From Candidatus Omnitrophota bacterium (GTDB lineage Bacteria > Omnitrophota > Gorgyraeia > Gygaellales > Profunditerraquicolaceae): a stretch of DNA of 64,000 nucleotides. Below the pieces are notes generated by a model that searched no databases, had not been told where the DNA came from, and saw only the letters and a list, made by a program, of their open reading frames with translations. The position numbers were made by a program, and so were the translations under genes. The stretch lies in contig JAUSED010000003.1 in NCBI GenBank assembly GCA_030650425.1, forward strand, positions 7,903 through 71,902, written 5' to 3'. Below, piece after piece: positions 5,138 to 59,898 of this stretch (the stretch's first letter is position 1; each line of letters starts with the position of its first letter).

Positions 5138-5242
5138 AGGGGACACTTTCCAACCTCTGCAGAAAGGGACACTTTCCGTCAGGGCCTAACTAGAACTTCA
5201 AAAGGAAAATGTCCCTTTCTGACGCAAAGGAAAGTGTCCCCT
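5138..5242. repeat. Family-2 palindromic element as a nested double copy. Layout is A(5138-5151) A(5165-5177) loop A'(5204-5216) A'(5229-5242), with A = GGGGACACTTTCC.
   Basis: Read directly. The same stems and loop (gtcagggcctaactagaacttcaaaa) recur at 34171-34225 and, with the loop inverted, at 59843-59898. Confidence 0.85.
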
Positions 5243-5254
5243 AGCATTGAGAAA

Positions 5255-6715
5255 ATGAAAATTAACGCATTAGACATCCGGGAAGTCGGCAGAATAGAAG
5301 AGCTTAAGCAGGGAATTGTCAAGATCAGCGGCCTGCCTAATTGTTCGTACGGAGAAGTGATTGAATTTGAGAACGGGCTAAAAGGGATGATCGTTGAATT
5401 TAACCCTGAATGCGCTTACGGTATTATTTTCGGTGATGAACACAAGGTTAAGGTTGGGGATGTGGTCTCCAGCCGCGGAGGCCTGCTCAATGTTCCGGTG
5501 GGAAGCGCCTTTGTCGGCAGGGTAGTCGATTCTCTGGCCCGGCCAATAGACGGAAAAGGGCATATTGAAGCGGCGGATACTTATTCGGTTTTTCGCGAGG
5601 CAGCCGGAGTAATGGAGAGGGAGCCGATCAGCGAAACCCTGCATACAGGGATAAAGATTATCGATATGCTGATCCCCTTGGGTAAGGGCCAGCGCGAACT
5701 TGTCGTCGGAGACCGCCAGATTGGCAAGACTTCTATCGGCCTCGATACGATCATCAATCAAAAAGGTAAAAATGTCATTTGCATATATTGCTGGATAGGA
5801 GGGAGCAGCGCCGCTTTTAATAAAATCATCCAAACCCTGCGCCAGCACGGAGCAATGGATTATTTTCTGGGCGTTTCGGCGCCGGCAGGCGCCTCCACCT
5901 CCGAACAATACATCTGCCCTTATACCGCCGCTGCCCTCGGCGAATATTTTATGTATAACGGCAAGGATGTTTTGATTATTTTTGACGATTTAACCAAACA
6001 TAGCTGGGTTTATCGTCAGATGTCTTTGCTCCTTGAGCGCGCCCCGGGAAGAGAGGCGTACCCCGGAGATATATTCTTTCTGCATTCGCAGCTAATGGAA
6101 CGCGCGGGCAGGTTAAAGAAAGAATTCGGCGGAGGGTCAATGACCTTTTTTCCTTTAGCCGAGACACTACAAGGCGATATTACCGGATACATTTGTTCCA
6201 ATATCGTCTCGATGACTGACGGCCAAATTTATTTAAACACCGGGCTTTTCCAAGAAGGCTTTAAACCGGCGATCGATCTGGAGTTATCCGTCTCGCGTAT
6301 CGGAAGCAAGGTGCAGTGTCCGGCAATCCGTCAATTAAGCGCGGGGCTGCGCTACGAATACGTGCGCTTCCGTTCGTTGCTCAGGCTTACCCGCTTAAGG
6401 ACTAAGCTTAGCCCGGAGGCAGCTGAACAGCTGCAAAGGGGCAAGGTCCTCTATGAGCTTTTAATTCAGGAGAATAGCGTCCCTCTTTCTCAGGCGGAAG
6501 AGATCGCTCTTTTTTACGCTTTTTACCAGAAGATACTGGAGGCTCTCAGCATAGAGCAGGTGAAATATTTTAAAATTAACTTTTTTAATTATTTGTCTAA
6601 TCATTACGGGGAATTAGTCAATGAGCTTAACACAAAAGGCGAACTGGGAGACGAGATTAAGGCGCAATTAGATAAAGCAATCAAGGATTTCTTCCGCAGC
6701 GCGAAGATAGGGTAG
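5255..6715 (+). CDS. atpA: F1 ATP synthase alpha subunit.
   Basis: Walker A GDRQIGKTSIGLDTI, ERAPGREAYPGDIFFLHSQLMERA, and C-terminal LRYEYVRFRSL-like region. The track start at GTG 5234 lies inside the repeat element; ATG 5255 is preferred. Confidence 0.9.
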   Translation: MKINALDIREVGRIEELKQGIVKISGLPNCSYGEVIEFENGLKGMIVEFNPECAYGIIFGDEHKVKVGDVVSSRGGLLNVPVGSAFVGRVVDSLARPIDGKGHIEAADTYSVFREAAGVMEREPISETLHTGIKIIDMLIPLGKGQRELVVGDRQIGKTSIGLDTIINQKGKNVICIYCWIGGSSAAFNKIIQTLRQHGAMDYFLGVSAPAGASTSEQYICPYTAAALGEYFMYNGKDVLIIFDDLTKHSWVYRQMSLLLERAPGREAYPGDIFFLHSQLMERAGRLKKEFGGGSMTFFPLAETLQGDITGYICSNIVSMTDGQIYLNTGLFQEGFKPAIDLELSVSRIGSKVQCPAIRQLSAGLRYEYVRFRSLLRLTRLRTKLSPEAAEQLQRGKVLYELLIQENSVPLSQAEEIALFYAFYQKILEALSIEQVKYFKINFFNYLSNHYGELVNELNTKGELGDEIKAQLDKAIKDFFRSAKIG

Positions 6716-6720
6716 AATAA

Positions 6721-7560
6721 ATGATCCCCATAGGCAAGTTAAAGACGAATATGCTGTTTAATAAAAACCTCGAGGATTTAATCGAGGTAATGAAACTGGC
6801 GGCGACTACGCAGTTTAACCAGTTTCGTTCGCGCCAAGAGCCTTCCGCGGATTTCATCCGTCAGCTCGACGAAGTGTTTGAGGTTTTATTTTCTTCAGGG
6901 ATCCCCAAAGATTTGCTTGTCTCTGAAGAATCCCTCCCGGCGCTCATCCTCTTGGTCTCCTCCGACGAAGGCTTCTTGGGGGAATTGAATTTTCTTTTGG
7001 TGAATAAACTTTTGGATATAAAAAGGCCGCAGGATACGGTTCTTTGTGTGGGTAATCAAGGCGCTAATTACCTGAAGGAAACTGAGATAAATTTTTCATT
7101 CCTTGATTCGCCGGGCGAAAAGATTGACAGCGAAAACCTGGGTAAAATATGTGATAGTATTTTCAAGCAATACCTGAAGCGCTCCGTCGGCAGGGTTTAT
7201 GTGATCTATTCGCGTTTTATCAATATCACCGCGCAGCAGATCGAACTGGAGAGCCTGCTTCCTTTAGAGAAGACATCTTCTTCCACTAAGCCTGTACGCG
7301 ATCTTTTGGTTGAGCCTTCCAGCCGCGCTGTAATTGAGGGATGGATTAAGCAATGGCTGAGTTTTCGGCTTTATCATATATTCTGGTCGAGTAAGTTGGC
7401 AGAATTTGCCGCGCGGATTATGCATCTTGAGGGAAGCGTACAGGAGTTAGGAAAAATAAACAGCCATTTGCGTATGGAGTATTTTAAGTATTTGCACGGG
7501 CTTTCCGATAAATCCATCCGCGAACTTACCGCGGCGCGCTTGTTGGAGAAGAATAAGTAA
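6721..7560 (+). CDS. atpG: F1 ATP synthase gamma subunit (divergent).
   Basis: Position between alpha and beta, N-terminal LEDLIEVMKLAATTQFNQFR helix, and size of about 279 aa. Confidence 0.6.
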   Translation: MIPIGKLKTNMLFNKNLEDLIEVMKLAATTQFNQFRSRQEPSADFIRQLDEVFEVLFSSGIPKDLLVSEESLPALILLVSSDEGFLGELNFLLVNKLLDIKRPQDTVLCVGNQGANYLKETEINFSFLDSPGEKIDSENLGKICDSIFKQYLKRSVGRVYVIYSRFINITAQQIELESLLPLEKTSSSTKPVRDLLVEPSSRAVIEGWIKQWLSFRLYHIFWSSKLAEFAARIMHLEGSVQELGKINSHLRMEYFKYLHGLSDKSIRELTAARLLEKNK

Positions 7561-10678
<3,118 letters not shown>

Positions 10679-10679
10679 T

Positions 10680-10784
10680 GGAAACTGTTTCCGGTCCAAA
10701 GCGGAAACAGTTTCCGTTTCAATCGGGAAACAGTTTCCCGATTAGCTTGGAAACAGTTTCCTTCACGAATTGGAAACAGTTTCC
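10680..10784. repeat. REP array 3: five units starting at 10680, 10703, 10726, 10749 and 10772. It begins 2 nt after the pilB/gspE stop.
   Basis: 23-nt phasing. Unit 3 plus its arms forms the 26-nt palindrome tcaatcGGGAAACAGTTTCCcgatta. Confidence 0.9.
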
Positions 10785-10811: not shown

Positions 10812-12047
10812 ATGAAATTTTTATACAAGGCTAAAAAGAGCTTAAACGAGATTGCTGAAGGAATCATTGAGAAAGATAGTATTGAGCAGGCTATCGAGGA
10901 ACTGCAGGCAAAAGGCCTTACCCCGATTTCTATCGAACCGCAAAGCCCAATTGTTTCTCCCGGAGCCCCTAGCGCTAAAGTCGTCAAGAAGAACAACCTA
11001 AGGTTTACCTCCGGAAAATGGGGGCTAAAACAACTGAGCCTTTTTACCCAGAAGTTATACAACTTAATCAATACCCGCGTTGAGCTGCTTAACGCGCTGC
11101 GGCTCTTAGAAAAAAATTGCGAGAACCAGACGGAAAAAATCCTTCTCGGAGAGATCATTAAAAATATTAAGGATGGTATGTCTTTTTCCGAATGCCTGAA
11201 CTGCTATCCTAAATATTTCCCCGAGCTTTACGTGCATATAATACACACCGGAGAGTCAACGGGGAAATTAAAGGATGCCCTTCTTCAACTGTTGGATTAT
11301 CTGCGCCGGCTTGAAGATTTGAAGCTGAAAGTAAAACAGGCGCTGGCCTATCCTATATTTATGACCGTAGTCGGCATAGGCACGATAGGCGTAATGCTCA
11401 CCTTTGTTTTACCGCGGCTTGCCGGGATGTTTGACGATTTTCACGCCCAGCTTCCTATGCCCACGCTTATCCTGCTGAATACCGCGAATTTCATCAAGCA
11501 GTATTGGTTTTTTATAATTATATTTTTTGCCCTGTTGATTTCCGCGTTAAGATTCCGGCTTCAGGGAAAAGAAAGTTTATTCGGACGCCTGAAATACCAT
11601 ATTCCCATAGCCAAGGGGATTATTTATAAACAGTCGGTAGCAAATTTCTCAAGGAGTATATCGCTGCTGCTAAAAAGCGGAGTCACTTTAATGGCCGCGC
11701 TTGGCGACGCCGCGTTTGTGATTGGAAATCCGGTTTACATCCAGCAGTTGGGAGAGGTGCGCAAGGATATAGCCGGAGGCGTTACTTTCTCTGATTCGCT
11801 GGCTAAATTCAAGATCTTTCCGGATTTTTTTGTGCAGATGATCCGCGTAGGTGAAGAGGGAGGGAGGCTGGATCAGGTCCTTTCGGATATAGCGGAATCT
11901 TACGATAACGAGATTGAAGCTGACCTGAAGACGATCAGTTCCCTGATCGAGCCGGCGATCATCCTGATTTTAGGTTCGGTGATCGGCAGTATGGTTATTG
12001 CTATGCTTTTGCCTATCTTTAACATGAGCAGCCTGTTCGGAACTTAA
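10812..12047 (+). CDS. Type IV pilus / T2SS inner-membrane platform protein (PilC/GspF family).
   Basis: Duplicated GspF domain architecture with 3 TM segments, typical length of 411 aa, and position after the ATPase. Confidence 0.85.
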   Translation: MKFLYKAKKSLNEIAEGIIEKDSIEQAIEELQAKGLTPISIEPQSPIVSPGAPSAKVVKKNNLRFTSGKWGLKQLSLFTQKLYNLINTRVELLNALRLLEKNCENQTEKILLGEIIKNIKDGMSFSECLNCYPKYFPELYVHIIHTGESTGKLKDALLQLLDYLRRLEDLKLKVKQALAYPIFMTVVGIGTIGVMLTFVLPRLAGMFDDFHAQLPMPTLILLNTANFIKQYWFFIIIFFALLISALRFRLQGKESLFGRLKYHIPIAKGIIYKQSVANFSRSISLLLKSGVTLMAALGDAAFVIGNPVYIQQLGEVRKDIAGGVTFSDSLAKFKIFPDFFVQMIRVGEEGGRLDQVLSDIAESYDNEIEADLKTISSLIEPAIILILGSVIGSMVIAMLLPIFNMSSLFGT

Positions 12048-12053
12048 ATAATA

Positions 12054-13966: not shown

Positions 13967-14041
13967 CGAAACTGTTTCCAATTTGTGAGGGAAACTGTTT
14001 CCATTCCAAAGCGGAAACTGTTTCCGAGTCAATCGGGAAAC
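13967..14041. repeat. REP array 4: three units at 13967, 13990 and 14013, plus a degenerate fourth at 14036.
   Basis: 23-nt phasing. Linkers are aatttgtgag, attccaaagc and gagtcaatcg. Confidence 0.85.
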
Positions 14042-16717: not shown

Positions 16718-16724
16718 TAAAAAT

Positions 16725-16760
16725 AAAGGGGACGGTTGGGACGGTTGTCCCCTTTATTTT
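16725..16760. terminator. Strong GC stem-loop aaaggggacggttgggacggttgtcccctttatttt, lying between divergent gene starts.
   Basis: 9-bp GGGGAC stem flanked by an A-run and a T-run, so it is symmetric. It sits upstream of both 16717(-) and 16780(+), which is odd for a terminator. Confidence 0.4.
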
Positions 16761-16779
16761 TGTATGATATAATTAAATT

Positions 16780-18399
16780 ATGATTGAACGATTACGAATT
16801 CCCATGCCACTGCGAAAATCGCCTAAAGTTACTGCTGGAGGCAATTTTCTTGATATTGAAGTTATTTGTTGGGTTATGCTCTTGCTAACTTTGTCAGTGG
16901 TGTTGATCGTGAGGCTGAGGCTGTTGGGGATTCCCCTTGAGCGGGATGAGGGAGAATACGCCTATCTCGGCCAGCTTTTATTGCAGGGCGTGCCTCCTTA
17001 TAAGCTCGCTTATAGTATGAAGCTTCCCGGCGCGTGCGCTGTTTACGCTTTGTTGATGGCGGTATTCGGGGAGACGATCAAGGGCATTCATTTAGGGTTC
17101 TTAATTATTAATTTCGCTTCAATTGCCTTAATATTTTTTATAGCTAAAAGATTATCCGGCACTCTAGCCGGAATTATTTCCGCAGCTGCTTACGCTGTTT
17201 TATCTGTTAGTCAATCAGTCCTCGGAGTCCAGGCGCATGCCACGCATTTAATAGTCTTGGCAGCCCTCTGCGGATCAATCTTACTTTTAAAAGCAGTTGA
17301 AAATGATCGAAAGAGTTTAATTTTCTTGAGCGGTTTATTTTTTGGGCTGGCCTTTCTGATGAAACAACAGGGAATATTTTTTATCCCCTTCGGCATCTTT
17401 TATCTTTCCTGGGCTTGCAAGAAACGATCTGTTTTAGCGGCTAATTTGATGGTTTATAGCTTGGGAGCGGCGTTACCTTTTGCACTAACCTGTTTAGTTC
17501 TTTTTTTTGCCGGCGTTTTCGATAAATTTTGGTTTTGGACGTTTCAATATGCATCCGGGTATTCTTCCGGCGCTCACGTTTATTTGGCGTTTCAAATTTT
17601 CAAAGCCCAATTGCTGGGGGCGATCAAACCATTTAAGCCGGTATGGTATATCGCGGCCGCGGGTTCTTTGTGCCTTTTTATCGACGCTAAAGTTAGAAAG
17701 AATATCTTTTTTGTCGCGGCTCTGTTGATTAGTTCTTTTCTGGCTCTCTGCCCGGGATTTATCTTCCGTGAGCATTATTTTGTGATGATATTGCCGGTAG
17801 TTTCTATATTATGCGGTATGTGCGTAAATTCGGCTGTTGAATTTATCAAGAATCGAAAATATCCGGCAGCTTTTCAATCCTTTCCGGTGATCATCTTTAC
17901 CGTTATTTTGGCGCTTTCTGTTTTTCAACAGAGGGATTACTTTTTTACAGCAACTCCGGAGAGGGTATCGCGGAAGGCTTACGCTGAAAATCCTTTTATC
18001 GAGTCCATCAGTATAGGAAATTACCTAAAAGCGCATTCATCTCCGGAGGATACGATCGCGGTATTGGGCTCAGAGCCCCAGATATATTTTTACGCGCGCA
18101 GGCGTTCGGCAACCGGCTATATTTATGCCTATCCTTTAATGGAAAACCAGCCTTATGCCTTAAAGATGCAGGAGGAGATGATTAGAGAAATCGAATTTCA
18201 AAAACCCCTCTACTTAGTTTTTGTCAAGGTTAACACTTCTTGGCTGCGGCACGGAGGTTCAGAAAATTTTATCTTCAGATGGGCCCAAAATTATATTACC
18301 GAGCATTACGATATTGCCGGGGCAACCTTTATTTCTAAGCAACCTTTTTCCTCTGTATTGGTCTATAAGCGAAAGGCGGAAACAGTTTCCAATTTGTGA
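16780..18399 (+). CDS. Polytopic membrane glycosyltransferase of the GT39/GT83 family (PMT/ArnT-like).
   Basis: About 12 TM helices in the N-terminal two-thirds and a soluble C-terminal domain. The last six codons and the stop (ETVSNL*) are supplied by REP array 5. Confidence 0.55.
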   Translation: MIERLRIPMPLRKSPKVTAGGNFLDIEVICWVMLLLTLSVVLIVRLRLLGIPLERDEGEYAYLGQLLLQGVPPYKLAYSMKLPGACAVYALLMAVFGETIKGIHLGFLIINFASIALIFFIAKRLSGTLAGIISAAAYAVLSVSQSVLGVQAHATHLIVLAALCGSILLLKAVENDRKSLIFLSGLFFGLAFLMKQQGIFFIPFGIFYLSWACKKRSVLAANLMVYSLGAALPFALTCLVLFFAGVFDKFWFWTFQYASGYSSGAHVYLAFQIFKAQLLGAIKPFKPVWYIAAAGSLCLFIDAKVRKNIFFVAALLISSFLALCPGFIFREHYFVMILPVVSILCGMCVNSAVEFIKNRKYPAAFQSFPVIIFTVILALSVFQQRDYFFTATPERVSRKAYAENPFIESISIGNYLKAHSSPEDTIAVLGSEPQIYFYARRRSATGYIYAYPLMENQPYALKMQEEMIREIEFQKPLYLVFVKVNTSWLRHGGSENFIFRWAQNYITEHYDIAGATFISKQPFSSVLVYKRKAETVSNL

Positions 18400-18459
18400 A
18401 GGAAACTGTTTCCATTCCGTGAAGGAAACTGTTTCCAGCCCAATTGGGAAACTGTCCCC
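18378..18459. repeat. REP array 5: three units at 18378, 18401 and 18424, plus a degenerate unit GGAAACTGTCCCC at 18447-18459 abutting the RAYT stop.
   Basis: 23-nt phasing. Linkers are aatttgtgaa, attccgtgaa and agcccaattg. Confidence 0.9.
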
Positions 18460-18941
18460 TAGAGCACGAGTTTATCTAGTAAAGCAAAATTATTTAAATA
18501 GGCTAGATTCCTTTCTGGATAACTGCTGAATTCATACTCTTTCATATTTTTGACTAAATTAGCCCGGATTGGATTCTGTTCTACATAAGCAATACAGTCT
18601 ATTAGGTATTGATCTCTAGCTATTACCTTTGCCTTGAATCTACCCTGCCACAAATGGCCTACCTTATTATATTTTTTGTTATAGTAAGCAGTGTATGATC
18701 GATGTAGGCCTTGCATAAAACTAGGAAGTTTACTCGGGTTTTTAGGCTCACCTATAATATGAATATGGTTTGGCATTAGGCAGTAACCGTACAGAAGCAG
18801 GGAGTGTTTTCTTTTGTAAAGCCTTAATTGGTGAAGATAAAATTCAAAATCTTCTTTACTTTTGAATATTAGTTGTTTTTGATTGCCTCTCGCATAGATA
18901 TGATAGCAGGCATTATTGATAAGTAATCGTGTTTTAGCCAT
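18459..18941 (-). CDS. REP-associated tyrosine transposase (RAYT, IS200/IS605-like Y1 HUH family).
   Basis: HUH motif CLMPNHIHII, catalytic Tyr region IAYVEQNPIRANLV, and GHLWQGRFK. At about 160 aa it is the typical size. Start set at ATG 18941, which has an AAGGAGG RBS 5 nt upstream on the minus strand. Confidence 0.8.
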   Translation of the reverse strand: MAKTRLLINNACYHIYARGNQKQLIFKSKEDFEFYLHQLRLYKRKHSLLLYGYCLMPNHIHIIGEPKNPSKLPSFMQGLHRSYTAYYNKKYNKVGHLWQGRFKAKVIARDQYLIDCIAYVEQNPIRANLVKNMKEYEFSSYPERNLAYLNNFALLDKLVL

Positions 18942-18954: not shown

Positions 18955-19036
18955 AAGTCCACTTTCCCGATTGGCTCGGAAACAGTTTCCGCTTTGAGAT
19001 GGAAACAGTTTCCCGATTAGGATGGAAACTGTTTCC
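18955..19036. repeat. REP array 6: a degenerate unit at 18955 (gtccactttccc), then units at 18978, 19001 and 19024.
   Basis: 23-nt phasing. Linkers are cgattggctc, gctttgagat and cgattaggat. Confidence 0.9.
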
Positions 19037-19039
19037 ATA

Positions 19040-20566
19040 TTATAATCTCCTGTCTAGGCTTCTGTATTGCACTGCCTCTGAAATATGCTCAGCCAGAATA
19101 ACTTCCGACCCGGCTAGATCCGCGATAGTCCTGGAGATTTTAAGAATTTTATCAAATGCCCGGCCGGAAAATCCTAATTCCGTCATCGCTATTTTTAACA
19201 ATTCTTTTGCTTCATCTTCGAGGCCGCAATATTTTTTGATTAATTTGATGTTCATCCTTGCGTTATAAAAAATTCCGTCATTGGCAAAGCGCCTGTTTTG
19301 GATGGCGCGCGCTTTTTCTACCCTTGTTTTAATCACGGTTGAAGACTCGGCATCCTTTGTATCGACGAGCTCTTGATATTTTATGGAAGGCAGCTCGATA
19401 TGGATATCTATTCTGTCTAATAATGGCCCGGATATTTTACCCATATATCCGGCTATCTTATGCGGATTACAGCGGCAGGCGCGATAAGGGTCAGTGTAAT
19501 AGCCGCAGGGACAGGGATTCATCGCAGCGACTAAAACAAAAGAAGCAGGAAAGATAAGAGATTTGAATATGCGCGATACGCGTATGCAGCCGTCTTCCAA
19601 CGGTTGACGCAAGGCTTCAAGGCAGTCGCGCCGGAATTCCGGAAGTTCATCCAGAAAAAGCACGCCTTGATGCGCTAAGCTAATTTCTCCCGGAACAGGT
19701 ATGGAGCCGCCTCCGACCATAGCTATAGTGGAGATGGTGTGGTGAAGGGAGCGGAATGGCCGGGTGATCATAATTCCGTCTTTATTGAGCAGGGTTCCGG
19801 CCACCGAATGTATTTTACTTACTTCTAATGTCTCTTGCAGAGTCAGGTCTGGCATAATCGTGGGGATTCTTTTAGCGAGCATAGTTTTGCCGCTCCCCGG
19901 CGGCCCAATCATCAGGATGTTGTGGCCTCCAGCTACAGCTATCTCTAAAGCTCTTTTCGCCAGAAATTGCCCTTTGACTTCCGAGAAGTCCAGACCATAA
20001 CAATCCTTACTTTGGTATAGACTGAACAGATCTGGTTTAGAAGGCTTAAAGCCGGCGGGATTATTTAAGAACTCAACAGTTGCGCGCAGCGTTTTAAGCG
20101 CGAAGACAGAGACTCCGGGTACGATAGCCGCTTCCTTAGCGTTTTGCTCGGGGGTAATCAGCGAGCCAAAGCCGGATTTCAGGGTAGCCATCGCTATCGG
20201 GAGCATCCCCCGCACCGGCCTAAGCGTTCCGTCCAAAGAGAGTTCTCCCAAGACAAAATATCCGGATAACCCGCAGCTATTTATCTGCTCGGTTGCCGCC
20301 AGTATCCCTAAGGCAATCCCGAGGTCGAAACAAGCGCCTTCTTTTTTGATTCCTGACGGCGCAAGGCTGATGGTCACCCTTTCCGATGGCCAATTAAACC
20401 CAGAGTTTTTGATCGCTGACTTCACCCGTTCCTTGCTTTCTTTTACCGCGGAATCCGGCAGCCCGACTACATTTACTGCTGGCAGGCCTCTACAGACATC
20501 TACTTCGATCTCCACAGGGTATGCCTCTATGCCCTGTAATCCAAAACTTAATACTTTAGCTAGCAT
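19040..20566 (-). CDS. comM: Mg-chelatase-like AAA+ ATPase ComM/YifB.
   Basis: N-terminal LAKVLSFGLQGIEAYPVEIEVDV (Lon-like domain), Walker A GPPGSGKTMLAKR, and a C-terminal ChlI-type domain. Confidence 0.85.
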   Translation of the reverse strand: MLAKVLSFGLQGIEAYPVEIEVDVCRGLPAVNVVGLPDSAVKESKERVKSAIKNSGFNWPSERVTISLAPSGIKKEGACFDLGIALGILAATEQINSCGLSGYFVLGELSLDGTLRPVRGMLPIAMATLKSGFGSLITPEQNAKEAAIVPGVSVFALKTLRATVEFLNNPAGFKPSKPDLFSLYQSKDCYGLDFSEVKGQFLAKRALEIAVAGGHNILMIGPPGSGKTMLAKRIPTIMPDLTLQETLEVSKIHSVAGTLLNKDGIMITRPFRSLHHTISTIAMVGGGSIPVPGEISLAHQGVLFLDELPEFRRDCLEALRQPLEDGCIRVSRIFKSLIFPASFVLVAAMNPCPCGYYTDPYRACRCNPHKIAGYMGKISGPLLDRIDIHIELPSIKYQELVDTKDAESSTVIKTRVEKARAIQNRRFANDGIFYNARMNIKLIKKYCGLEDEAKELLKIAMTELGFSGRAFDKILKISRTIADLAGSEVILAEHISEAVQYRSLDRRL

Positions 20567-20641
20567 ATTTACCTCCTCTAAGCTAATAGACGTAAGAAGG
20601 ATGTAAATCTAACGAAAATAATTGGATAGTTTTGACAAAAA

Positions 20642-20672
20642 AGGTGACAGCCACAAAATACGTGACTGTCAC
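20642..20672. repeat. Family-3 palindromic element ggtgacagCcac-aaaatac-gtgactgtcacc, flanked by an A-run and a T-run.
   Basis: Same architecture as the 54756-54796 element inside comEC. It sits between divergent gene starts. Confidence 0.6.
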
Positions 20673-20695
20673 CTTTTTCCGGAGATGAGAAAAGG

Positions 20696-22573: not shown

Positions 22574-22590
22574 TATAAAGTAAAATAAAG

Positions 22591-22695
22591 GAAACAGTTT
22601 CCAATCTGTGAAGGAAACTGTTTCCGGCTCAATCGGGAAACAGTTTCCGCTTTGGGTCGGAAACAGTTTCCGCTTTGAGATGGAAACAGTTTCCA
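22591..22695. repeat. REP array 7: five units at 22591, 22614, 22637, 22660 and 22683, between ldt and accA.
   Basis: 23-nt phasing. Linkers are aatctgtgaa, ggctcaatcg, gctttgggtc and gctttgagat. Confidence 0.9.
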
Positions 22696-27398: not shown

Positions 27399-27475
27399 CG
27401 AAACTGTTTCCATCTCAATCGGGAAACAGTTTCCGAGCCAATCGGGAAACTGTTTCCGAGCCAATCGGGAAAGTG
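27399..27475. repeat. REP array 8: units at 27399, 27422 and 27445, plus a degenerate unit at 27468, between the KS alpha and KS beta genes.
   Basis: 23-nt phasing. Linkers are atctcaatcg, gagccaatcg and gagccaatcg. Confidence 0.9.
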
Positions 27476-31336: not shown

Positions 31337-31367
31337 GAGGGACCGTTTCCTGAAAGGAAACGGTCCC
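31337..31367. terminator. Intra-cluster hairpin gagggaccgtttcc-tgaaa-ggaaacggtccctag.
   Basis: 13-bp stem with a 5-nt loop immediately after the cyclase stop. There is no T-run, so it is more likely an attenuator or processing structure than a terminator. Confidence 0.35.
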
Positions 31368-31386
31368 TAGATTCTAGGAGGCCATT

Positions 31387-32659: not shown

Positions 32660-33268
32660 ATGAAAAAAATATTTTTGGTAATAGCGTTATTCTTCGGCGC
32701 AATGGGGATAAGCTTTGCCGCAGCTGAAAATTTGTTAGTCGACGATTTTGAAATTAGCGTATCCAGCGGCCCGAACGGCACAGTTGATTTTGGCGCGGGG
32801 AATGGCTCTACTGTAAACGTTACCGCAGCTGCCGAAGTTAAAAATACCGGGAAGCAGGCCCTTAAGGTAGATTTTGACGCGGTTACCGGCGGCTATATGT
32901 ACGTTGCCCGGGGAGAAGGATTGGACGCTCATAATACCGGATGGTTGGTTAGTCCCGAGGATATCAAGTGGCATGATTATAAGGCATTTTCTTTCTACAT
33001 GTATGGCTCGGATTCCAAAGGTAAGGTAGCTTTTGATATTAAAGATAATGCTAATGAAGTTTGGCGTTTTATCGTTGAGGATAATTTTGAGGGCTGGAGG
33101 CAGATTATTTGTAATTTCGAGCAATTTACCGCCAGAGGAGATTGGCAGCCGCAAAACGCCGATAATAACGCTGTGCTTAATTTTCCGGTGAGGTCTTTTC
33201 AATTCGAACCGCTTCCTCCGTTAAAAGGGACCATTTATCTTGATACTGTGGAATTAGTTAAAAAATGA
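32660..33268 (+). CDS. Secreted hypothetical protein with a beta-sandwich-like sequence.
   Basis: Signal peptide MKKIFLVIALFFGAMGISFAAA. No recognised motif. Confidence 0.45.
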   Translation: MKKIFLVIALFFGAMGISFAAAENLLVDDFEISVSSGPNGTVDFGAGNGSTVNVTAAAEVKNTGKQALKVDFDAVTGGYMYVARGEGLDAHNTGWLVSPEDIKWHDYKAFSFYMYGSDSKGKVAFDIKDNANEVWRFIVEDNFEGWRQIICNFEQFTARGDWQPQNADNNAVLNFPVRSFQFEPLPPLKGTIYLDTVELVKK

Positions 33269-34197
33269 TCATTGACGCGCATAGCCATTGGCTGCCGGAA
33301 GAAATAATTTCCAATGCCCATTTTTTTTCCAAAAGCTGGGGTGAGATCGAGCATCAGCTTGAGGCAATGGATGAAGCAGGGATTGATCAAGCCGTTCTCT
33401 CATATCCTACTTCCGACGCCCATCTTAAGTTAGGGAGTATTTCACTGGTTGCCCGGATTTTTAATGATAATGTAGCCAAAATCCTCAAAAAATATCCGGA
33501 CAGATTTATTGGCGCGGCAGTCCTGCCAGTGGACAACGGGAAGGATATGCAAGAGGAGGCTAAGCGGGCTATAGAAAAACTAGGGTTTAAGGCCTTCTCT
33601 TTGGCGAGCAGCTACAATGCTGTATATCTGGACGATCAGATCTTCTTACCTATATATAAGCTGGCGCAGGATGAGCATATACCGATTTTTGTGCATTCTC
33701 AGATTGTTAAGCCCATTGGCATCGAGCGCGTAAACGACCCGCTGCTTACCCCGGTAATCGAATATGTTTTTGATATGACGGTGTGTATTGGTAAGCTGCT
33801 GATGTCGGATATTTTACGCGATTATAAAACGAAATTTATCTTTGCATCTTTTGGCGGGGTAATTCCGTTTATAGCGCATAGGTTTGACGCGACCTACCAG
33901 ATGCTGCGGGGGATTAATTTTGTCAAAGACCTGCAAGCAATGCCTACAGAATTATTGAAGTATATTTATGTGGATACCAGCGGAGATAAGACCAAGGCGA
34001 ATTTTCAGGCAGCCTTGGAGTTACTCGGGCCAAAACATATTCTCTGGGGAAGCGATTGGCCAGCCAAAAAAGATATCGCCGCAGGAATGCAGGCGGTTAA
34101 AAATTTAGATATATCTAACGAAGACAAGCATAATATTTTAGGCGGTAATTTAGAACAGTTCTTGAACAGTAGGGGACATTTTCCGTCAGGGCTCTAA
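33265..34197 (+). CDS. Amidohydrolase-2 family enzyme (ACMSD-type metal-dependent decarboxylase/hydrolase).
   Basis: N-terminal MIIDAHSHWLPEE and a TIM-barrel hydrolase pattern. The last ~8 codons and the stop are encoded within a family-2 repeat element. Confidence 0.65.
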   Translation: MIIDAHSHWLPEEIISNAHFFSKSWGEIEHQLEAMDEAGIDQAVLSYPTSDAHLKLGSISLVARIFNDNVAKILKKYPDRFIGAAVLPVDNGKDMQEEAKRAIEKLGFKAFSLASSYNAVYLDDQIFLPIYKLAQDEHIPIFVHSQIVKPIGIERVNDPLLTPVIEYVFDMTVCIGKLLMSDILRDYKTKFIFASFGGVIPFIAHRFDATYQMLRGINFVKDLQAMPTELLKYIYVDTSGDKTKANFQAALELLGPKHILWGSDWPAKKDIAAGMQAVKNLDISNEDKHNILGGNLEQFLNSRGHFPSGL

Positions 34198-34225
34198 GAG
34201 GAGCCTCAAAAGGAAAGTGTCCTCT
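34171..34225. repeat. Family-2 palindromic element copy B: AGGGGACATTTTCC - loop - GGAAAGTGTCCTCT.
   Basis: Diverged copy. The loop is gtcagggctctaagaggagcctcaaaa versus gtcagggcctaactagaacttcaaaa at 5178. Confidence 0.75.
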
Positions 34226-34261
34226 ACTGACTCAAACGGAAATTCATTAAGAGAAAACATT

Positions 34262-44321: not shown

Positions 44322-44380
44322 GGAAACTGTTTCCAACTTGTGAAGGAAACTGTTTCCGGATCAATCGGGAAACAGTTTCC
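44322..44380. repeat. REP array 9: three units at 44322, 44345 and 44368.
   Basis: 23-nt phasing. Linkers are aacttgtgaa and ggatcaatcg. This is the last family-1 array in the window. Confidence 0.9.
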
Positions 44381-50463: not shown

Positions 50464-50530
50464 CACTAAAGCGAGCGTAAAAAATCGCGGCAAGCGGTTT
50501 AGCGAGCGTAGTGCCTTCGGTAAATTCTCC

Positions 50531-50561
50531 ATAAAGGGACGGATAATATCCGTCCCTTTAT
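50531..50561 (+). terminator. Hairpin ataaagggacggat-aat-atccgtccctttat.
   Basis: 14-bp perfect stem. It belongs to the GGGAC(G/C)G-stem hairpin class that recurs at 2233, 16725, 31337 and 53881. Confidence 0.5.
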
Positions 50562-50587
50562 GGTAGAACAGTTTTAGAGAAGAGTTA

Positions 50588-53877: not shown

Positions 53878-53880
53878 GAT

Positions 53881-53946
53881 AAATAGGGACAGCGCCAATT
53901 TTTTCAGTAAAAATATACGCAGAAAAAATGGGCGCTGTCCCTATTT
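53881..53946 (+). terminator. Long imperfect hairpin after leuS (aaatagggacagcgccaattttttc ... gaaaaaatgggcgctgtccctattt).
   Basis: About 25-bp interrupted stem, followed by T-rich sequence. Confidence 0.55.
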
Positions 53947-54016
53947 ATCTCTATTTATCTATTTATTTCAGTTAGATTCTGCCTCTCTCTGCGTCTATTA
54001 GGGTAGGAGGTGGGGA

Positions 54017-54346: not shown

Positions 54347-55761
54347 GCTGGCTGACTTTATATTTTTGCGCGGGGATAATTTTTGCGCATTTTTTTAAAG
54401 TTTATTTTTGGCCGCTTTATTCTCTCGGATTGGCCTTACTTGTTATCTGCACCATTTTTATCAAAAAAGATTTAATCTTCAAGAGATTCTCCTCTTGTTT
54501 AATTTTTATCTGCGGAGCAGTGTTGTTAACCAATACTTATATCCTGTCTAAAACTCATATCTCTAAATTTGTCTCCTATAAGAACGATACAGTTTTTACG
54601 GTTAAGGGATTTGTGAACAGCCAGCCGCAGTTAAAAGATAACCAGGTTTCATTTCTCTTGGCCGTGCAAGAATTGGAATTTAACCGCGCTCATTATAAAT
54701 CTTGCGGAGAGATTCTGGTTCATCTAAAAGAAATCAAAGAAGGGGAAGAAGGTCCCGAAGGTGACAGTCACGAAATGCGTGACTGTCACCTTCGGTACGG
54801 CGAGGCCTTAATCTTAAGAGGGACTATGCATAAGCCGTTTAAGTTATATAGTGACAGGATAGCTGCGATTATGCGGGTGAATATGCCCGGTTGCGTCATA
54901 AGATTAAATAGAAATTGTGGAAACCCCGTGCTTAGATTTGCCTATTTCCTTAAAGGAAAGATAGAGGAGGTAATTTATCAGAGGCTTTCTAAATTAGCCG
55001 CGGGCATCGCGAACGCCATGATTTTAGGAGAAGAGAGGGGTATCCCGGTTGCAGTTTATGACGCGATGGCCAAAAGCGGGACTGTGCATATCTTGGTGGT
55101 CAGCGGTTTTAATGTCGGAATAGTTGCCTTTATCATTATCTTGTTGTTTAAGGTCTTACGGGTTCCCCGCAAGCTTAGATATCTTCTAGCCATCCCTTGC
55201 CTAATAATATACTGCTTAGCTACAGGCGCTCAGGCTCCGGTGGCGCGCGCGACGATTATGGCGATATTTTTTCTCACGGGATTCCTTCTTAAAAGGGAGC
55301 CGGATATACGTAATTCTTTTTCTTTAGCCGCCCTCTTCATTCTTTTAATTAACCCGAGAGAAGTATTTTCCATCAGTTTCCAGCTTTCTTTTGCCAGCGT
55401 CGCGGCGATCATTTTTCTTGATCCTAAACTCAACGCGTTTTTTAAAACCGAATGCATAAAGCTGAAACTTTTAAGATTGATCACGGAAGGCGCCCTGGTA
55501 TCTCTATCTGCCTGGGTAGCTACTTTAGGGTTGATCGCTTATAATTTCAGGTTTCTCTCTCCGGTTACCGTATTAGCCAATATTTTTATTGTTCCTCTAG
55601 CCACTTTGATTACGCTCTCCGGATTTAGCTTGGTTATTATCTCCATAATTTTTCCTGTTTGGGCGGGATTCTTTGCTCGCGCCATCGAGTTCTTAGTGGT
55701 CGTACTTTTAAGCGTCAATAACCAGCTGGTTCAGTTCCCCTTGGCTTACCTACATTGGTAG
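54343..55761 (+). CDS. comEC: ComEC/Rec2-like DNA internalization channel, short form lacking the C-terminal metallo-beta-lactamase domain.
   Basis: N-terminal DUF4131-like OB region plus a multi-TM competence domain. The ORF ends before any MBL motif, 60 nt before the bamD-like gene. It contains a 41-nt perfect hairpin at 54756-54796. Confidence 0.65.
   Translation: MSWLTLYFCAGIIFAHFFKVYFWPLYSLGLALLVICTIFIKKDLIFKRFSSCLIFICGAVLLTNTYILSKTHISKFVSYKNDTVFTVKGFVNSQPQLKDNQVSFLLAVQELEFNRAHYKSCGEILVHLKEIKEGEEGPEGDSHEMRDCHLRYGEALILRGTMHKPFKLYSDRIAAIMRVNMPGCVIRLNRNCGNPVLRFAYFLKGKIEEVIYQRLSKLAAGIANAMILGEERGIPVAVYDAMAKSGTVHILVVSGFNVGIVAFIIILLFKVLRVPRKLRYLLAIPCLIIYCLATGAQAPVARATIMAIFFLTGFLLKREPDIRNSFSLAALFILLINPREVFSISFQLSFASVAAIIFLDPKLNAFFKTECIKLKLLRLITEGALVSLSAWVATLGLIAYNFRFLSPVTVLANIFIVPLATLITLSGFSLVIISIIFPVWAGFFARAIEFLVVVLLSVNNQLVQFPLAYLHW
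54756..54796. repeat. Intragenic family-3 palindromic element CCGAAGGTGACAGTCAC-gaaatgc-GTGACTGTCACCTTCGG, a perfect 17-bp stem.
   Basis: Read directly, inside the comEC coding sequence (encodes ..PEGDSHEMRDCHLRY..). The homologous copy is at 20642-20672. Confidence 0.85.
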
Positions 55762-56763: not shown

Positions 56764-57323
56764 AGAAAAGAATAAGCCGGATTTTTCTGTTTTCTGTCCT
56801 CTGTTTTCTGTCCTCCGCGCTAGCCGGTTGCGGCTATACTACCCGTTCCATGGTCGGAAGTAAATACAGGACCATCTACATAACACCTTTCGTAAATAAA
56901 ATAAATATTACTACTCAGACTGACGCGGCCAATAAATACAGATTGTACAGGCCGATGATCGAGACCGATATTACCAGATCCGTAAATAACCGCTACCTCT
57001 TTGATGGAAATTTAAGGCCGCTAAAAGAAGAGTCGGCGGATGTTATTTTAAAGGGCGAGGTGTTAGATTTCCGCCGTGATCCTTTACGTTACGATGCTAA
57101 CGGCAATGTCACCGAATACCGTATTAATCTAGTGGTCAATATCAGCCTCTGGGAGAGGGCAGAGAATAAATTAATCTGGCAGGAGAATAGTTTTACCGGA
57201 GATACCACCTATTTTACCTCGTCTTCCGGAAACCCTCAGGCAAAGAGCGAAGATACGGCGGTAACTGACGCCCTGACTGACCTTAGCCGCCGGATTGTCG
57301 AGCGGACAGTTGAACAATGGTAA
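56760..57323 (+). CDS. lptE: LptE-like LPS-assembly lipoprotein.
   Basis: Lipobox LAGC followed by GYTTRS (compare LptE CGWHLRG). About 185 aa. Conserved leuS...lptE-holA neighbourhood. Confidence 0.55.
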   Translation: MKKRISRIFLFSVLCFLSSALAGCGYTTRSMVGSKYRTIYITPFVNKINITTQTDAANKYRLYRPMIETDITRSVNNRYLFDGNLRPLKEESADVILKGEVLDFRRDPLRYDANGNVTEYRINLVVNISLWERAENKLIWQENSFTGDTTYFTSSSGNPQAKSEDTAVTDALTDLSRRIVERTVEQW

Positions 57324-57324
57324 G

Positions 57325-57996: not shown

Positions 57997-58230
57997 GCGG
58001 GATTTCCTGCGGTTAGCTGTGGCGGGGTGGATGGTTCTTTTTTTAGCCGCTTTATCCAATTGTGAAAATACCTGAACCAGTATTTTTTTAGCCTCGGTAA
58101 TATTCTTTGCCGTAAGCAGGCCTTGAAACTGTTTGACCGTCTTCTTAAGCTGTTGTTTGATTTTCAGGTTTTGCAGGTGTTTTTTCTTATCCTGCCGCGT
58201 TTTTTTAACCGATGTTCTACGTCTTGGCAT
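57967..58230 (-). CDS. rpsT: Ribosomal protein S20.
   Basis: Basic 87-aa protein MPRRRTSVKKTRQDKKKHLQNL...ANRRKSRLMKRLN. An AAGGAG RBS lies upstream on the minus strand. Confidence 0.7.
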   Translation of the reverse strand: MPRRRTSVKKTRQDKKKHLQNLKIKQQLKKTVKQFQGLLTAKNITEAKKILVQVFSQLDKAAKKRTIHPATANRRKSRLMKRLNKGA

Positions 58231-58272
58231 ATTAGTTTCTCCTTTTAAATAAATTAGCATAATTCATTATTT

Positions 58273-59835
58273 ATGTCAACAGCCAAATATCCGCATCACT
58301 CTAACCGTAGAGTAGCTAAATCCGCCAGCGTCATCGGCCTGGCCACGCTTATCTCTCGCCTATTAGGATTCTTGCGGGATATTGTGATTGCCCGGCTTTT
58401 CGGGGTCTATGTCTACGCGCAGGCATTTGTGATTGCCTTCAGGATACCCAATCTCTTCCGGGACCTAGTCGGAGAAGGAGCGACCAACGCCGCCTTTGTT
58501 CCGGTATTCAGCGAATACGCTGAGCGCCATAGCCAAGAGGAATTTTGGGAGCTGGCTAATGTTGTGCTTAACCTGCTCTTGATCATACTGATGGCCATTA
58601 CCATTCTGGGCATAATATTTTCTCCAGTGATTGTGCGCTTAATCGCTCCCGGGTTTAGCGCTTCTCCGGAGAAATTAGCCGCGACCATCAAACTTAACCG
58701 GATTATTTTTCCTTACATCTTGCTAATAAGTTTAAGCGCCTATTCTATGGGCCTGCTGAATTCTCTCAAAGATTTCACTGTCTCTGCTTTTGCTCCCTGC
58801 CTTTTGAATATCTCCATTATTATCTTTGCCATGCTTTTTGGAGAAGGGATTAAGGGTTTGGCTTTAGGCGTTTTAACCGGCGGCGTTCTGCAACTAGCCG
58901 TGCAGATACCGGTGTTGTATAAAAAGGGTTTCCGCCTCAAAAGACCTAAAACCCTGAATCATCCGGCTGCTCAAACTATCGGCAAGTTAATGCTGCCGCG
59001 GCTTTTAAGCTCCTGTATTTATCAGCTGAATAATTTTGTCGATTCGATTTTCGGCTCATTGGCTTGGATCGTCGGAGAGGGAGGGGTGGCAGTTTTATAT
59101 TTTTCGTACAGGCTGATTCAATTTCCTTTGGGAGTTTTTAGCAACGCGTTATCTCAGGCAATCCTGCCGGCTTTTTCTACGCACGCCTTGGAAGAATCGC
59201 CTGATAAGTTGAAACATGCCCTATCCTGGGGCTTACGCGCGGTATTCTTTGTGATGCTCCCTGCCTCCGCGGGCTTTATGGTTTTAGCTAAACCATTGAT
59301 CTGGACGCTCTTTGGAGGAGGCCGCTTCGACAGCTACGCCAGTAATCTTACCGCCAGCGCTTTATTCTATTATAGCTTGGGATTATCCGCTTACGGCGGA
59401 ACCAAAATATTACAATCATGTTTTTTTAGCCTTAAAGATACAGTCACGCCTACTAAAACTGCCGCCTTATCTTTGATCTTAAATATTATCTTTATCATTA
59501 TTTTTATCTACCCTTTAAAGATTGCCGGGATTGCCTTGGCTACATCCTTATCCGGGATAATTACCTTTTTGGTTTTATTTTCTATTCTTAAAAAAAAGAT
59601 AGGGGATTTTGGAGTGGGCCAGATTGGCGCTTCTTTTCTGCGCGTCCTGCTGGCGAGCCTTGCTATGGGGGTCGTTTGTTATTTTACATCCCAGTTGCGT
59701 ATTAATCGATTCCTGAATTTAAGCGTTAGCGTTCTGGCGGGCCTATCTTCTTATGTAATTTTTTGTTTTATATTTAAGGTTAGCGAAATGCGCCAGCTCT
59801 GGAGCTGGGTGGTGCATAAAGAAAGAATAGGATAA
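58273..59835 (+). CDS. murJ: Lipid II flippase MurJ (MviN).
   Basis: N-terminus SVIGLATLISRLLGFLRDIVIARLFG, and 14 TM helices. Confidence 0.9.
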   Translation: MSTAKYPHHSNRRVAKSASVIGLATLISRLLGFLRDIVIARLFGVYVYAQAFVIAFRIPNLFRDLVGEGATNAAFVPVFSEYAERHSQEEFWELANVVLNLLLIILMAITILGIIFSPVIVRLIAPGFSASPEKLAATIKLNRIIFPYILLISLSAYSMGLLNSLKDFTVSAFAPCLLNISIIIFAMLFGEGIKGLALGVLTGGVLQLAVQIPVLYKKGFRLKRPKTLNHPAAQTIGKLMLPRLLSSCIYQLNNFVDSIFGSLAWIVGEGGVAVLYFSYRLIQFPLGVFSNALSQAILPAFSTHALEESPDKLKHALSWGLRAVFFVMLPASAGFMVLAKPLIWTLFGGGRFDSYASNLTASALFYYSLGLSAYGGTKILQSCFFSLKDTVTPTKTAALSLILNIIFIIIFIYPLKIAGIALATSLSGIITFLVLFSILKKKIGDFGVGQIGASFLRVLLASLAMGVVCYFTSQLRINRFLNLSVSVLAGLSSYVIFCFIFKVSEMRQLWSWVVHKERIG

Positions 59836-59842
59836 TTAAGCA

Positions 59843-59898
59843 GTAGGGGACACTTTCCTTTTGAAGTTCTAGTTAGAACCCTGACGGAAAGTGTCCCC
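59843..59898. repeat. Family-2 palindromic element copy C: AGGGGACACTTTCC - loop - GGAAAGTGTCCCCT, with the loop inverted relative to the 5165-5216 copy.
   Basis: The loop ttttgaagttctagttagaaccctgac is the reverse complement of the loop at 5178-5203, allowing 2 mismatches. Confidence 0.85.

Follow-up and report, generated by a model that had tools for sequence, protein, structure and literature searches.

A dispersed hairpin family with conserved 13-nt arms in an Omnitrophota genome, a probable REP/RAYT-type repeat

Introduction

We describe a family of dispersed hairpins, here called family 2, in a 64,000-nt stretch of the genome of a Candidatus Omnitrophota bacterium (assembly GCA_030650425.1, contig JAUSED010000003.1, positions 7,903 to 71,902; hereafter the window). 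Three copies, designated A, B and C, lie between genes of the window, and each carries 13-nt arms around a loop. We conclude that family 2 is a new example of the bacterial repeats represented by repetitive extragenic palindromes (REPs) and their REP-associated tyrosine transposases (RAYTs), and not a new kind of element. It probably belongs to one system together with two further components of the window, namely the palindrome arrays of a second repeat, family 1, and a RAYT gene. We consider the chance that this particular RAYT is the enzyme moving family 2 to be slightly better than even.

To our knowledge, nearly all work on REP/RAYT systems concerns Proteobacteria. We found no paper naming both Omnitrophota and repetitive extragenic palindromes.

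Results

Three copies of family 2 in the window

We searched both strands of the window for GGAAAGTGTCCCC, allowing up to 2 mismatches and using 100 shuffles as the null. The arm, GGGGACACTTTCC/GGAAAGTGTCCCC, was matched nine times compared to 1.01 expected, and none of the 100 shuffles reached nine. Eight of these matches are the arms of copies A, B and C (Table 1), while the ninth is the unit adjoining the RAYT gene, at 18447-18459. An earlier note on this DNA had proposed a dispersed hairpin family of three copies, and both the sequence at all three sites and the excess of arm matches agree with that proposal. Copy A is the nested double copy that the note described, with two direct and two inverted arms, and the loop of copy C is indeed the reverse complement of that of copy A, save for one substitution and one 1-nt indel. 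The loop length of 26 nt given for the family applies to copy A, whereas the loops of copies B and C measure 27 nt. We considered whether copy A arose by insertion of a short element into the loop of another, and rejected this because its two spacers are unlike a split loop. Copy C starts 10 nt past the murJ stop codon and ends 11 nt ahead of the uvrC ATG.

The palindrome reaches beyond the 13-mer, with TA on both sides in copy A and CAGTA/TACTG in copy B. All three copies fold more stably than shuffled sequence, whether folded as RNA (z -5.4 to -7.8; energies of -31 to -57 kcal/mol) or as DNA (z -4.7 to -7.1), and copy A reaches -56.7 kcal/mol as RNA (z -7.7) with a DNA z of -6.8. The loops of copies B and C are 78% identical. 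Their six differences include one compensatory change of C-G to T-A (U-A in RNA) in the 7-bp inner stem, two that swap Watson-Crick and wobble pairs, and two in the apical tetraloop.

Units at the ends of the RAYT gene link families 1 and 2

The RAYT of the window matches Pfam Y1_Tnp (E = 4e-11) and NCBIfam REP_Tyr_transpos (80.5 bits; cut-off 80), and in an alignment with E. coli TnpAREP (PDB 4er8, E = 0.004) its Tyr119 coincides with the catalytic Tyr115. A tblastn search of the window with this 160-aa protein and with a 235-aa Y1 protein from locus L170 (L numbers denote sequences from other assemblies) revealed no second Y1 transposase. Orthologs of the RAYT (66-87% identity) were examined in eleven loci of other Omnitrophota assemblies. 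Wherever the upstream gene was readable, including loci L158, L159, L161, L164, L167 and L173, the RAYT gene directly follows, in the same orientation, a ComM-like Mg-chelatase/AAA+ gene, and the genes on its other side differ between loci. This adjacency may be no more than the legacy of a single ancient insertion, or it may indicate a functional tie to the handling of single-stranded DNA. With one copy in the window and conserved ComM synteny, the gene conforms to the description of RAYTs as single-copy genes that are inherited vertically (PMC5581495).

Family 1 is represented in the window by nine clusters, in each of which a perfect 13-nt palindrome, GGAAACWGTTTCC, occurs 3-5 times with a strict period of 23 nt. 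A handful of types recur among its 10-nt spacers (...GTGAA, ...CAATCG, ...CAAAGC and their complements). Units of this type bracket the RAYT orthologs in all loci examined, and the innermost units are mostly a variant, GGGAAAGTGG... upstream and ...CCACTTTCCC downstream (L158, L164, L173 and others, down to 66% identity). Units at the 3' side of the gene can be set apart as a TAGGGGACAC type and a CCCACTTTCCC type. Some family 1 clusters also contain units resembling those next to the RAYT: those at 13967 and 27399 terminate with half units (CGGGAAACGGGGCATA or CGGGAAAGTGGGCATA) similar to the one at the RAYT start, and the centre of a cluster in the relative L169, GGGAAAGTGGG-ATAGTA-CCCATTGTCCC, equals two RAYT-proximal units without the gene. 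Orthologous clusters of the window and L169 differ in unit number.

Of the 13 positions of the family 2 arm, 3 differ from the family 1 unit, and the two families meet at the RAYT gene. The unit at the RAYT stop codon, TAGGGGACAGTTTCC, is a hybrid between a family 2 foot, TAGGGGACA, and a family 1 head, GTTTCC. Exact TAGGGGACA words occur five times in the window, four of them being family 2 feet and the fifth the RAYT stop-codon site, which matches the family 2 foot at 15 of 16 positions. In the closest relative, L163 (RAYT 87% identical), the stop codon TAG is directly followed by GGGACACTTTCC; the site there reads TAGGGGACACTTTCC, an exact family 2 arm including the TA foot, with 16-nt identity to copy A. 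At the other end of the gene, the 5'-proximal unit and the family 2 right arm both contain GGAAAGTG. Finally, in locus L003 of the metagenome-assembled genome (MAG) STB_56, a family 1 unit is enclosed by two family 2 arms, with 10-nt spacers that place it in the 23-nt register of family 1, and one of these spacers, AATCCAATCG, is of a type also present in the family 1 arrays of the window.

Taken together, the hybrid and variant units at the RAYT ends and the composite element in L003 indicate that families 1 and 2 are two architectures of one 13-nt module tied to the ends of RAYT genes. The relationship between the families suggested in the earlier note is thus well founded, resting on the 3 of 13 arm differences, the hybrid unit and the in-register unit. 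The note had placed both half-sites abutting the RAYT gene one substitution from the arm; this holds for GGAAACTGTCCCC, while GGAAAGTGGAC (the reverse complement of 18957-18967) is two substitutions away over 11 nt. Its further suggestion that the same RAYT services both families is plausible, and is strengthened by the exact arm in L163, although the main flanking repeat is family 1.

Arms recur in other genomes while loops turn over

We scanned one genome per species, 185,579 species in all, for pairs of family 2 arms enclosing a loop of any sequence, 15-45 nt long. This stems-only scan returned 37 more loci in 13 MAGs, nine of which are labelled Omnitrophota, compared to about 0.03 matches expected at random (our own calculation, which assumes equal base frequencies). 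STB_56 contains about 19 exact copies in both orientations. When two mismatches were allowed in the arms, its copies proved to be mostly four-arm elements of about 102 nt, whose left and right spacers are each conserved and not mutually complementary, making the element asymmetric. Since the four-arm layout is the commonest in STB_56, we regard copy A as the canonical long form and not an accident. Locus L018 displays a tandem array of arm plus spacer. Three MAGs labelled Planctomycetales/Planctomycetia (L004, L006 and L008) carry exact family 2 arms around short A-rich loops, which may be a matter of binning or labelling or may mean that the family truly extends to another PVC lineage.

The arms are the same between genomes, and conservation of the loop stops at the level of the genome or lineage. 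GT(C)AG...TCTAACTAGA is common to the loops found in the window and in STB_56, those of other lineages are unrelated, and several of the latter hold inner palindromes of their own. The earlier note had argued from a conserved loop that the unit is more than a generic terminator stem. That view stands, as the copies have no T-tail, belong to no Rfam family and have arms recurring in 13 genomes, but it is the arm and not the loop that is conserved between genomes. The arms keep their sequence and do not covary, which favors a protein that recognizes this sequence. We discarded a covariation count that admitted 3 mismatches in the arms, because family 1 units had entered it.

Sites for a nucleoid or regulatory DNA-binding protein of the host, with the potential to form hairpins an incidental result of pairing operator half-sites, would likewise account for a 13-mer that is strictly conserved across genomes while loops vary, and for the regular 23-nt and 26-nt spacing of units; E. 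coli REPs and bacterial interspersed mosaic elements (BIMEs) are known to bind IHF and gyrase (PMC3479197). However, such sites would leave unexplained the insertion polymorphism, the in-frame intragenic copies and the strand polarity presented below, together with the association with RAYT ends, and no candidate protein was identified. We therefore find this explanation scarcely credible.

The 3.3 kb of sequence to the right of the window hold no family 2 copy. A metagenome scan with the 16-mer ACAYTTTCCGTCAGGG, comprising the left arm and loop start, hit at least 120 loci, and the matches listed were all chance ones without a right arm. In an independent Logan assembly (run SRR13727527), positions 1-62 of contig L171 correspond to 59848-59909 of the window. 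The contig begins inside the left arm of copy C, suggesting that the repeat breaks short-read assemblies of its host.

Family 2 elements have a fixed polarity

Arm position 8 is paired as C-G in 18 cases, T.G in 14 and C.A in 8, and never as T-A. When elements were oriented by the T.G wobble, the first loop base was G in 19 of 22 and the last was A in 18 of 22, and these G...A loop ends hold across at least ten unrelated loop types. The elements consequently possess a fixed polarity, marked by the T.G wobble together with the G...A loop ends. According to the earlier note orientation is defined by the loop alone; the loop is one mark, but the position-8 wobble and the G...A loop ends are two more. 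With G.T and G/A on one strand and C.A and T/C on the other, the profile is that expected of a substrate read as a single strand. RAYT binding and cleavage of single-stranded DNA at E. coli REPs likewise depend on two features, a mismatch in the stem and a 5' GTAG (PMC3479197). The consensus at the foot flank of family 2 is G-W-A|GGGG, and in several lineages GTAG constitutes the first four loop bases instead.

Copies A and B are lineage-specific insertions

Among 44 elements, 26 lie between co-directional genes, five between divergent genes, one between convergent genes and three inside open reading frames (ORFs); the remaining nine are at contig ends and unclassifiable. Intergenic positions thus account for 32 of the 35 elements with classifiable context, often at distances of <30 nt from the neighbouring genes. 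In the window, the flanking genes are co-directional, as the earlier note had reported, all on the + strand, and encode an ATP synthase b/delta fusion and AtpA, an amidohydrolase and CrcB, and MurJ and UvrC (assigned by Pfam; AtpA by protein match). AtpA and the amidohydrolase, like the RAYT, show 100% identity to proteins of a Candidatus Omnitrophota MAG.

The atpFH-atpA spacer that houses copy A measures 147 nt, compared to 21 and 14 nt in the relatives L170 and L169, in which AtpA is 87-88% identical and gene order is otherwise unchanged. The closest AtpA homolog (92% identical) is preceded by a 60-nt spacer. Filled and empty spacers are too diverged to align, and no exact boundaries or target duplication could be defined. 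Copy B, as the earlier note had recognized, supplies the stop codon of its upstream gene: the amidohydrolase ORF (33265-34197) crosses the left arm and terminates at a TAA (34195-34197) in the loop, such that copy B encodes its last 8-9 codons. The product is 310 aa long and ends ...EQFLNSRGHFPSGL (an ...SRGHFPSGL tail), whereas 119 of 120 amidohydrolase homologs measure 281-308 aa, mostly 300-305, and have no element-encoded tail; the closest of these (89% identical) end ...NLEQILAN or ...ILAL. Since the tail is the translated left arm plus loop start and the window protein is its sole carrier among the 120, copy B evidently hit the native stop codon and furnished a new one. Copies A and B are therefore lineage-specific insertions.

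All three intragenic copies (L005 200-242, L013 1353-1395 and L033 3164-3216) are in frame. L005 (labelled Syntrophus) and L013 (labelled Peptococcaceae) share the same insertion in a GDP-mannose 4,6-dehydratase gene, where it encodes ...GTTGTFSGSPKGSESVPG..., and may represent a separate lineage. The L033 copy, in a 702-aa ORF of an Omnitrophota MAG, encodes ...SRGHFPSEAPKAPSQESVP..., its arm frame again giving SRGHFPS. The right arm is translated as E-S-V-P in both the dehydratase and the L033 copies.

An insertion of this size could also be a miniature inverted-repeat transposable element (MITE) of a DDE transposon, the 13-15 bp arms serving as terminal inverted repeats and TA as an IS630/mariner-type target-site duplication, in the manner of Correia-like elements. 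TA is found at both ends of copies A and B and at about 40-60% of outer arms elsewhere, and both size and terminal-repeat layout are MITE-like. However, TA is self-complementary, equally readable as an extension of the palindrome, and far from universal. A search that was not exhaustive disclosed no DDE transposase with these ends in the window or the fetched loci, an arm is present at the end of a Y1 transposase gene, and tandem arm-plus-spacer arrays such as that in L018 are typical of REP/BIME clusters and not of MITEs. A MITE origin thus appears very improbable.

As a separate observation on the ATP synthase operon, L170 carries between atpA and atpG (11462-11856) a gene for a 96-aa GIY-YIG protein with flanking short palindromes. 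The atpA-atpG spacer of the window is just 5 nt (6716-6720).

A probable DNA-level origin and a possible RNA-level role

A terminator scan called none at copies A-C, whose tails (TAGCATTG, TACTGACT and TTACCCGA) contain no T-run; lacking a T-run and having loops of 26-27 nt, the copies were rejected as intrinsic terminators. Rfam 15 at its gathering score reported only two tRNAs in the window and nothing at the hairpins, and at E up to 1 the hairpins matched only miRNA-precursor models, far below threshold, as generic long hairpins do. Integron attC sites were rejected because the arms have no RYYYAAC / GTTRRRY cores and the flanking genes are housekeeping genes in conserved synteny. CRISPR repeats were likewise considered and rejected.

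We compared the polarity of the structured strand with that of co-directional neighbouring genes. It was sense in two cases and antisense in one in the window, sense in two and antisense in six in STB_56, and sense in 11 and antisense in one in the other genomes (p = 0.006 for this subset, in which the loci are not all independent), giving 15 sense and 8 antisense overall (p = 0.21). GC skew is positive over the entire window, and for this reason its + strand is probably the lagging-strand template.

These data bear on whether the elements are primarily RNA devices, that is, intercistronic hairpins that serve mRNA stability, processing or translational coupling and are kept by selection on the transcript. 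Their RNA folds are very stable, and they lie 10-35 nt from stop and start codons of operon genes. Changes on one strand are compatible with G.U pairing, between copies B and C the inner loop stem has undergone one compensatory change (C-G to U-A), and outside the window and STB_56 11 of 12 structured strands are sense; moreover, G-T pairing in REPs has been suggested to point to an RNA function (PMC3733652). Conversely, the structured strand is antisense in copy C and in six of eight co-directional STB_56 copies, and five copies lie between divergent genes. Arms that are identical between genomes, with T-A never replacing T.G, indicate sequence-specific recognition, and an RNA device would leave unexplained both the roughly 19-fold multiplication in STB_56 and the arm at the RAYT stop codon. 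A primarily RNA-level nature is therefore rather unlikely. As a secondary role it is compatible with a RAYT-system repeat, and it is possible that retained copies act at the RNA level after an origin at the DNA level.

Other hairpins

A third hairpin family, AAATAGGGACAGCGACC...GGTCGCTGTCCCTATTT, i.e. AAATAGGGACAGCG(A)CC...GG(T)CGCTGTCCCTATTT, has one copy in the window (53878-53949). It recurs in at least seven intergenic regions over 21 kb of L170 (4670, 6954, 7803, 9194, 15706, 17022 and 18466), where it brackets the gene for the 235-aa Y1 transposase (7095-7802) and encodes part of its C-terminus, and L169 has half a copy between atpFH and atpA.

Further intergenic hairpins are summarized in Table 1. 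The mini-hairpin at 31338-31368, whose arm is intermediate between those of families 1 and 2, is by its sequence a possible relative. The hairpins at 20638 and 54755 are 91% identical copies of AAGGTGACAG.CAC...GTGACTGTCACCTT, those at 16719 and 20638 have A-runs and T-runs and resemble bidirectional terminators, and that at 2235 has an ortholog in L170.

Table 1. Repeats, hairpins and RAYT-associated features of the 64,000-nt window.
Feature	Position	Strand	Remarks
Family 2 copy A, four-arm form	5137-5243	+	between atpF/H (stop 5107) and atpA (ATG 5255)
Copy A outer arms	5139-5151 and 5229-5241		TA outside each arm
Copy A inner arms	5165-5177 and 5204-5216		left AGGGACACTTTCC; right GGAAAATGTCCCT
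Copy A loop	5178-5203	+	26 nt, GTCAGGGCCTAACTAGAACTTCAAAA; forward
Copy A spacers			13 nt left (outer to inner arm), 12 nt right
Family 2 copy B, diverged single hairpin	34167-34229	+	amidohydrolase-crcB gap; crcB starts 34262
Copy B left arm	34172-34184		GGGGACATTTTCC; 1 mismatch, gives T.G wobble
Copy B right arm	34212-34224		GGAAAGTGTCCTC; 1 mismatch
Copy B loop	34185-34211		27 nt; inner 7-bp stem
Family 2 copy C, single hairpin, exact arms	59841-59900	-	arms 59846-59858 and 59886-59898
Copy C loop	59859-59885		27 nt, reverse orientation; forward loop GTCAGGGTTCTAACTAGAACTTCAAAA on - strand
RAYT gene	18459-18941	-	160 aa; HUH motif (HIH)
RAYT 3'-proximal unit	18447-18461	-	TAGGGGACAGTTTCC on RAYT strand; TAG is the RAYT stop
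RAYT 5'-proximal unit	18957-18968	-	GGGAAAGTGGAC on RAYT strand; inverted partner of 3'-proximal unit
ComM-like gene	19040-20566	-	co-oriented with RAYT; Pfam
Family 1 array, RAYT 3' side	18378-18436		three GGAAACWGTTTCC units, 23-nt period
Family 1 array, RAYT 5' side	18978-19036		three units, 23-nt period; inverted relative to 3' array
Family 1 clusters	1361-1465, 7563-7667, 10680-10784, 13967-14025, 18378-18436, 18978-19036, 22590-22694, 27399-27457, 44322-44380
Mini-hairpin	31338-31368		AGGGACCGTTTCCT-gaa-AGGAAACGGTCCCT; 14-bp perfect stem, intergenic
Other intergenic hairpins	2235-2276, 16719-16761, 20638-20678, 31338-31368, 50529-50563, 54755-54795		feet like (A)GGG(G)AC or AGGTGACAG

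Discussion

Which enzyme serves family 2

Several observations weigh against assigning family 2 to the system of family 1 and the RAYT of the window. Under the flanking-16-mer criterion of Bertels et al. 2017 (PMC5581495), with counts made within the window, the 16-mers flanking the RAYT are the most abundant (5-6 copies) and belong to family 1, while family 2 16-mers number only 2. None of the RAYT genes examined is flanked by a complete family 2 hairpin, only by a single arm, and the 20-kb surroundings of six RAYT orthologs hold family 1 units and no family 2 hairpin. The arms beside RAYT genes face foot inward, to the gene, whereas those of the hairpins face foot outward. Conversely, tblastn revealed no RAYT homolog in about 200 kb of family-2-bearing loci. 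A literal GTA|G marks four of the six feet of the window, compared to only five of 34 in other genomes, just three family 2 copies are visible in the source genome, and the sense-strand bias in 11 of 12 cases outside STB_56 fits selection at the RNA level as well as a replication-strand bias. Lastly, L170 possesses a second Y1 enzyme, and the foot of the third hairpin family, TAGGGACAG, resembles that of family 2.

The family 1-dominated flanks, the foot-inward arms, the RAYT-ortholog surroundings that hold no family 2 hairpin, the family-2-bearing loci that hold no RAYT, and the L170 enzyme together make a second enzyme a live alternative, in which family 2 would be a REP- or terminal inverted repeat (TIR)-type repeat serviced by another Y1 transposase located outside the window, and its link with the RAYT would reduce to shared ancestry of the module. 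The L170 protein, which comes with hairpins of its own, offers a precedent, as does the third-family copy of the window, for which no matching transposase is present there, and several repeat-specific RAYT loci per genome are known (PMC3733652). Nevertheless, 16 nt at the stop codon of the L163 RAYT reproduce a family 2 foot exactly, as do 15 of 16 in the window, which speaks against this alternative, and tblastn with the RAYT and the 235-aa protein uncovered no further Y1 gene, either in the window or in any family-2-bearing locus. We consider it unlikely overall, and favor family 2 as a REP-type repeat of the same RAYT system as family 1.

Comparison with known systems

Family 2 most closely resembles the REP/BIME-RAYT systems (E. 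coli TnpAREP, REPtrons) and the REPINs of Pseudomonas, which are also short imperfect extragenic palindromes found in both orientations as singletons, doublets or clusters (PMC3479197, PMC3733652 and PMC5581495). Shared features further include a single-copy, vertically inherited HUH/Tyr transposase gene bracketed by repeats (here chiefly of family 1), an imperfection in the stem, a purine-rich foot tag and occasional in-frame intragenic copies. The stem of family 2 measures 13-18 bp and its loop 25-27 nt with a small stem inside, compared to mostly 6-9 bp and 2-4 nt in GTAG REPs. In contrast to REP pairs, the long form comprises two direct and two inverted arms and not two self-palindromic REPs. 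As a rule REPs are confined to one species or genus, but here the same 13-nt arm persists in many genomes of a phylum. Also unlike REPs, the GTAG tag is inconsistent outside the window, and the RAYT flanks are dominated by another family, family 1.

Also close are the TIRtrons, in which RAYT-like (TIRYT) genes are flanked by inverted repeats other than classical GTAG REPs, as is the case here. According to Di Nocera et al. 2013 (PMC3733652), some RAYT-flanking inverted repeats share the motif GGGGWSAS and form moderately abundant families of dimers and clusters, and TIR repeats can overlap the 3' end of a gene. GGGGWSAS fits both the arm start GGGGACAC and the start of the RAYT 3' unit, GGGGACAG, in a comparison with the published TIRs made by motif only. 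The paper further describes long stems of 12-13 bp, complex loops that are self-complementary and reach 27 bp, G-T pairs within stems and intragenic copies, and all of these are found in family 2. Unlike the TIRYT description, the enzyme of the window is short (160 aa) and an equivalog match to NCBIfam REP_Tyr_transpos.

IS200/IS605 elements and their transposase-less palindrome-associated derivatives, PATEs, share with the present system the Y1 HUH fold (Pfam Y1_Tnp) and subterminal hairpins at both ends, and family 1 clusters such as that centred on GGGAAAGTGGG-ATAGTA-CCCATTGTCCC in L169 are PATE-like in resembling two RAYT flanks joined without the gene. However, the RAYT gene occurs as a single copy that keeps its place next to comM, unlike the mobile, multi-copy genes of IS200/IS605, and family 2, being non-coding and much shorter, is unlike any insertion sequence. 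With intrinsic terminators family 2 shares a G+C-rich stem just past a stop codon; it differs in a loop far longer than their 3-8 nt, in the absence of a T-run, and in its occurrence inside operons and between divergent genes. We conclude that the departures from described REP/TIR systems, namely the four-arm form, the shared module, the arms common to many genomes of one phylum and the host phylum itself, are of degree.

A proposed mechanism

The building block is the 13-nt module. Family 1 uses its self-palindromic version, GGAAACWGTTTCC, at the 23-nt period, whereas family 2 uses a non-palindromic version, GGGGACAYTTTCC, and its complement, in two or four copies around a loop of 25-27 nt, yielding elements of about 53 or 102 nt. 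By analogy with E. coli TnpAREP and IS200/IS605, an element would fold as a hairpin on transiently single-stranded DNA; the HUH/Tyr enzyme would recognize the foot of the stem, an adjacent tag of the G-W-A-G type and the stem imperfection, and would then cut and rejoin one strand, thereby copying or moving the element. Between co-transcribed genes, the element would form a very stable hairpin in the mRNA, which probably alters transcript stability, processing or translation of the neighbouring genes.

A more far-reaching version casts the 13-nt module as the recognition element of an ancient, domesticated RAYT system that extends across much of Omnitrophota and seeds hairpins into operons. One ComM-adjacent enzyme would then serve both architectures, with arms frozen over deep divergence while loops turn over, and the fixed strand polarity, along with the sense-strand bias of low-copy genomes, would mean that the host keeps copies as intercistronic RNA hairpins, possibly coupled to the handling of single-stranded DNA by ComM. 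We offer this version as speculation, with the expectation that it is much more apt to fail than to hold.

Significance

Family 2 supplies a clean case from an uncultivated phylum, with a syntenic transposase, a module conserved between genomes and two architectures sharing that module. Its elements landed inside operons and, in one instance, on a stop codon. Such repeats appear to break short-read assemblies, and because they extend or alter gene ends, annotators should mask them. Comparison of the loci described here could also help to establish what a RAYT actually reads in a REP. If the far-reaching version were true, Omnitrophota would provide an example of RAYT-driven seeding of regulatory hairpins in operons.

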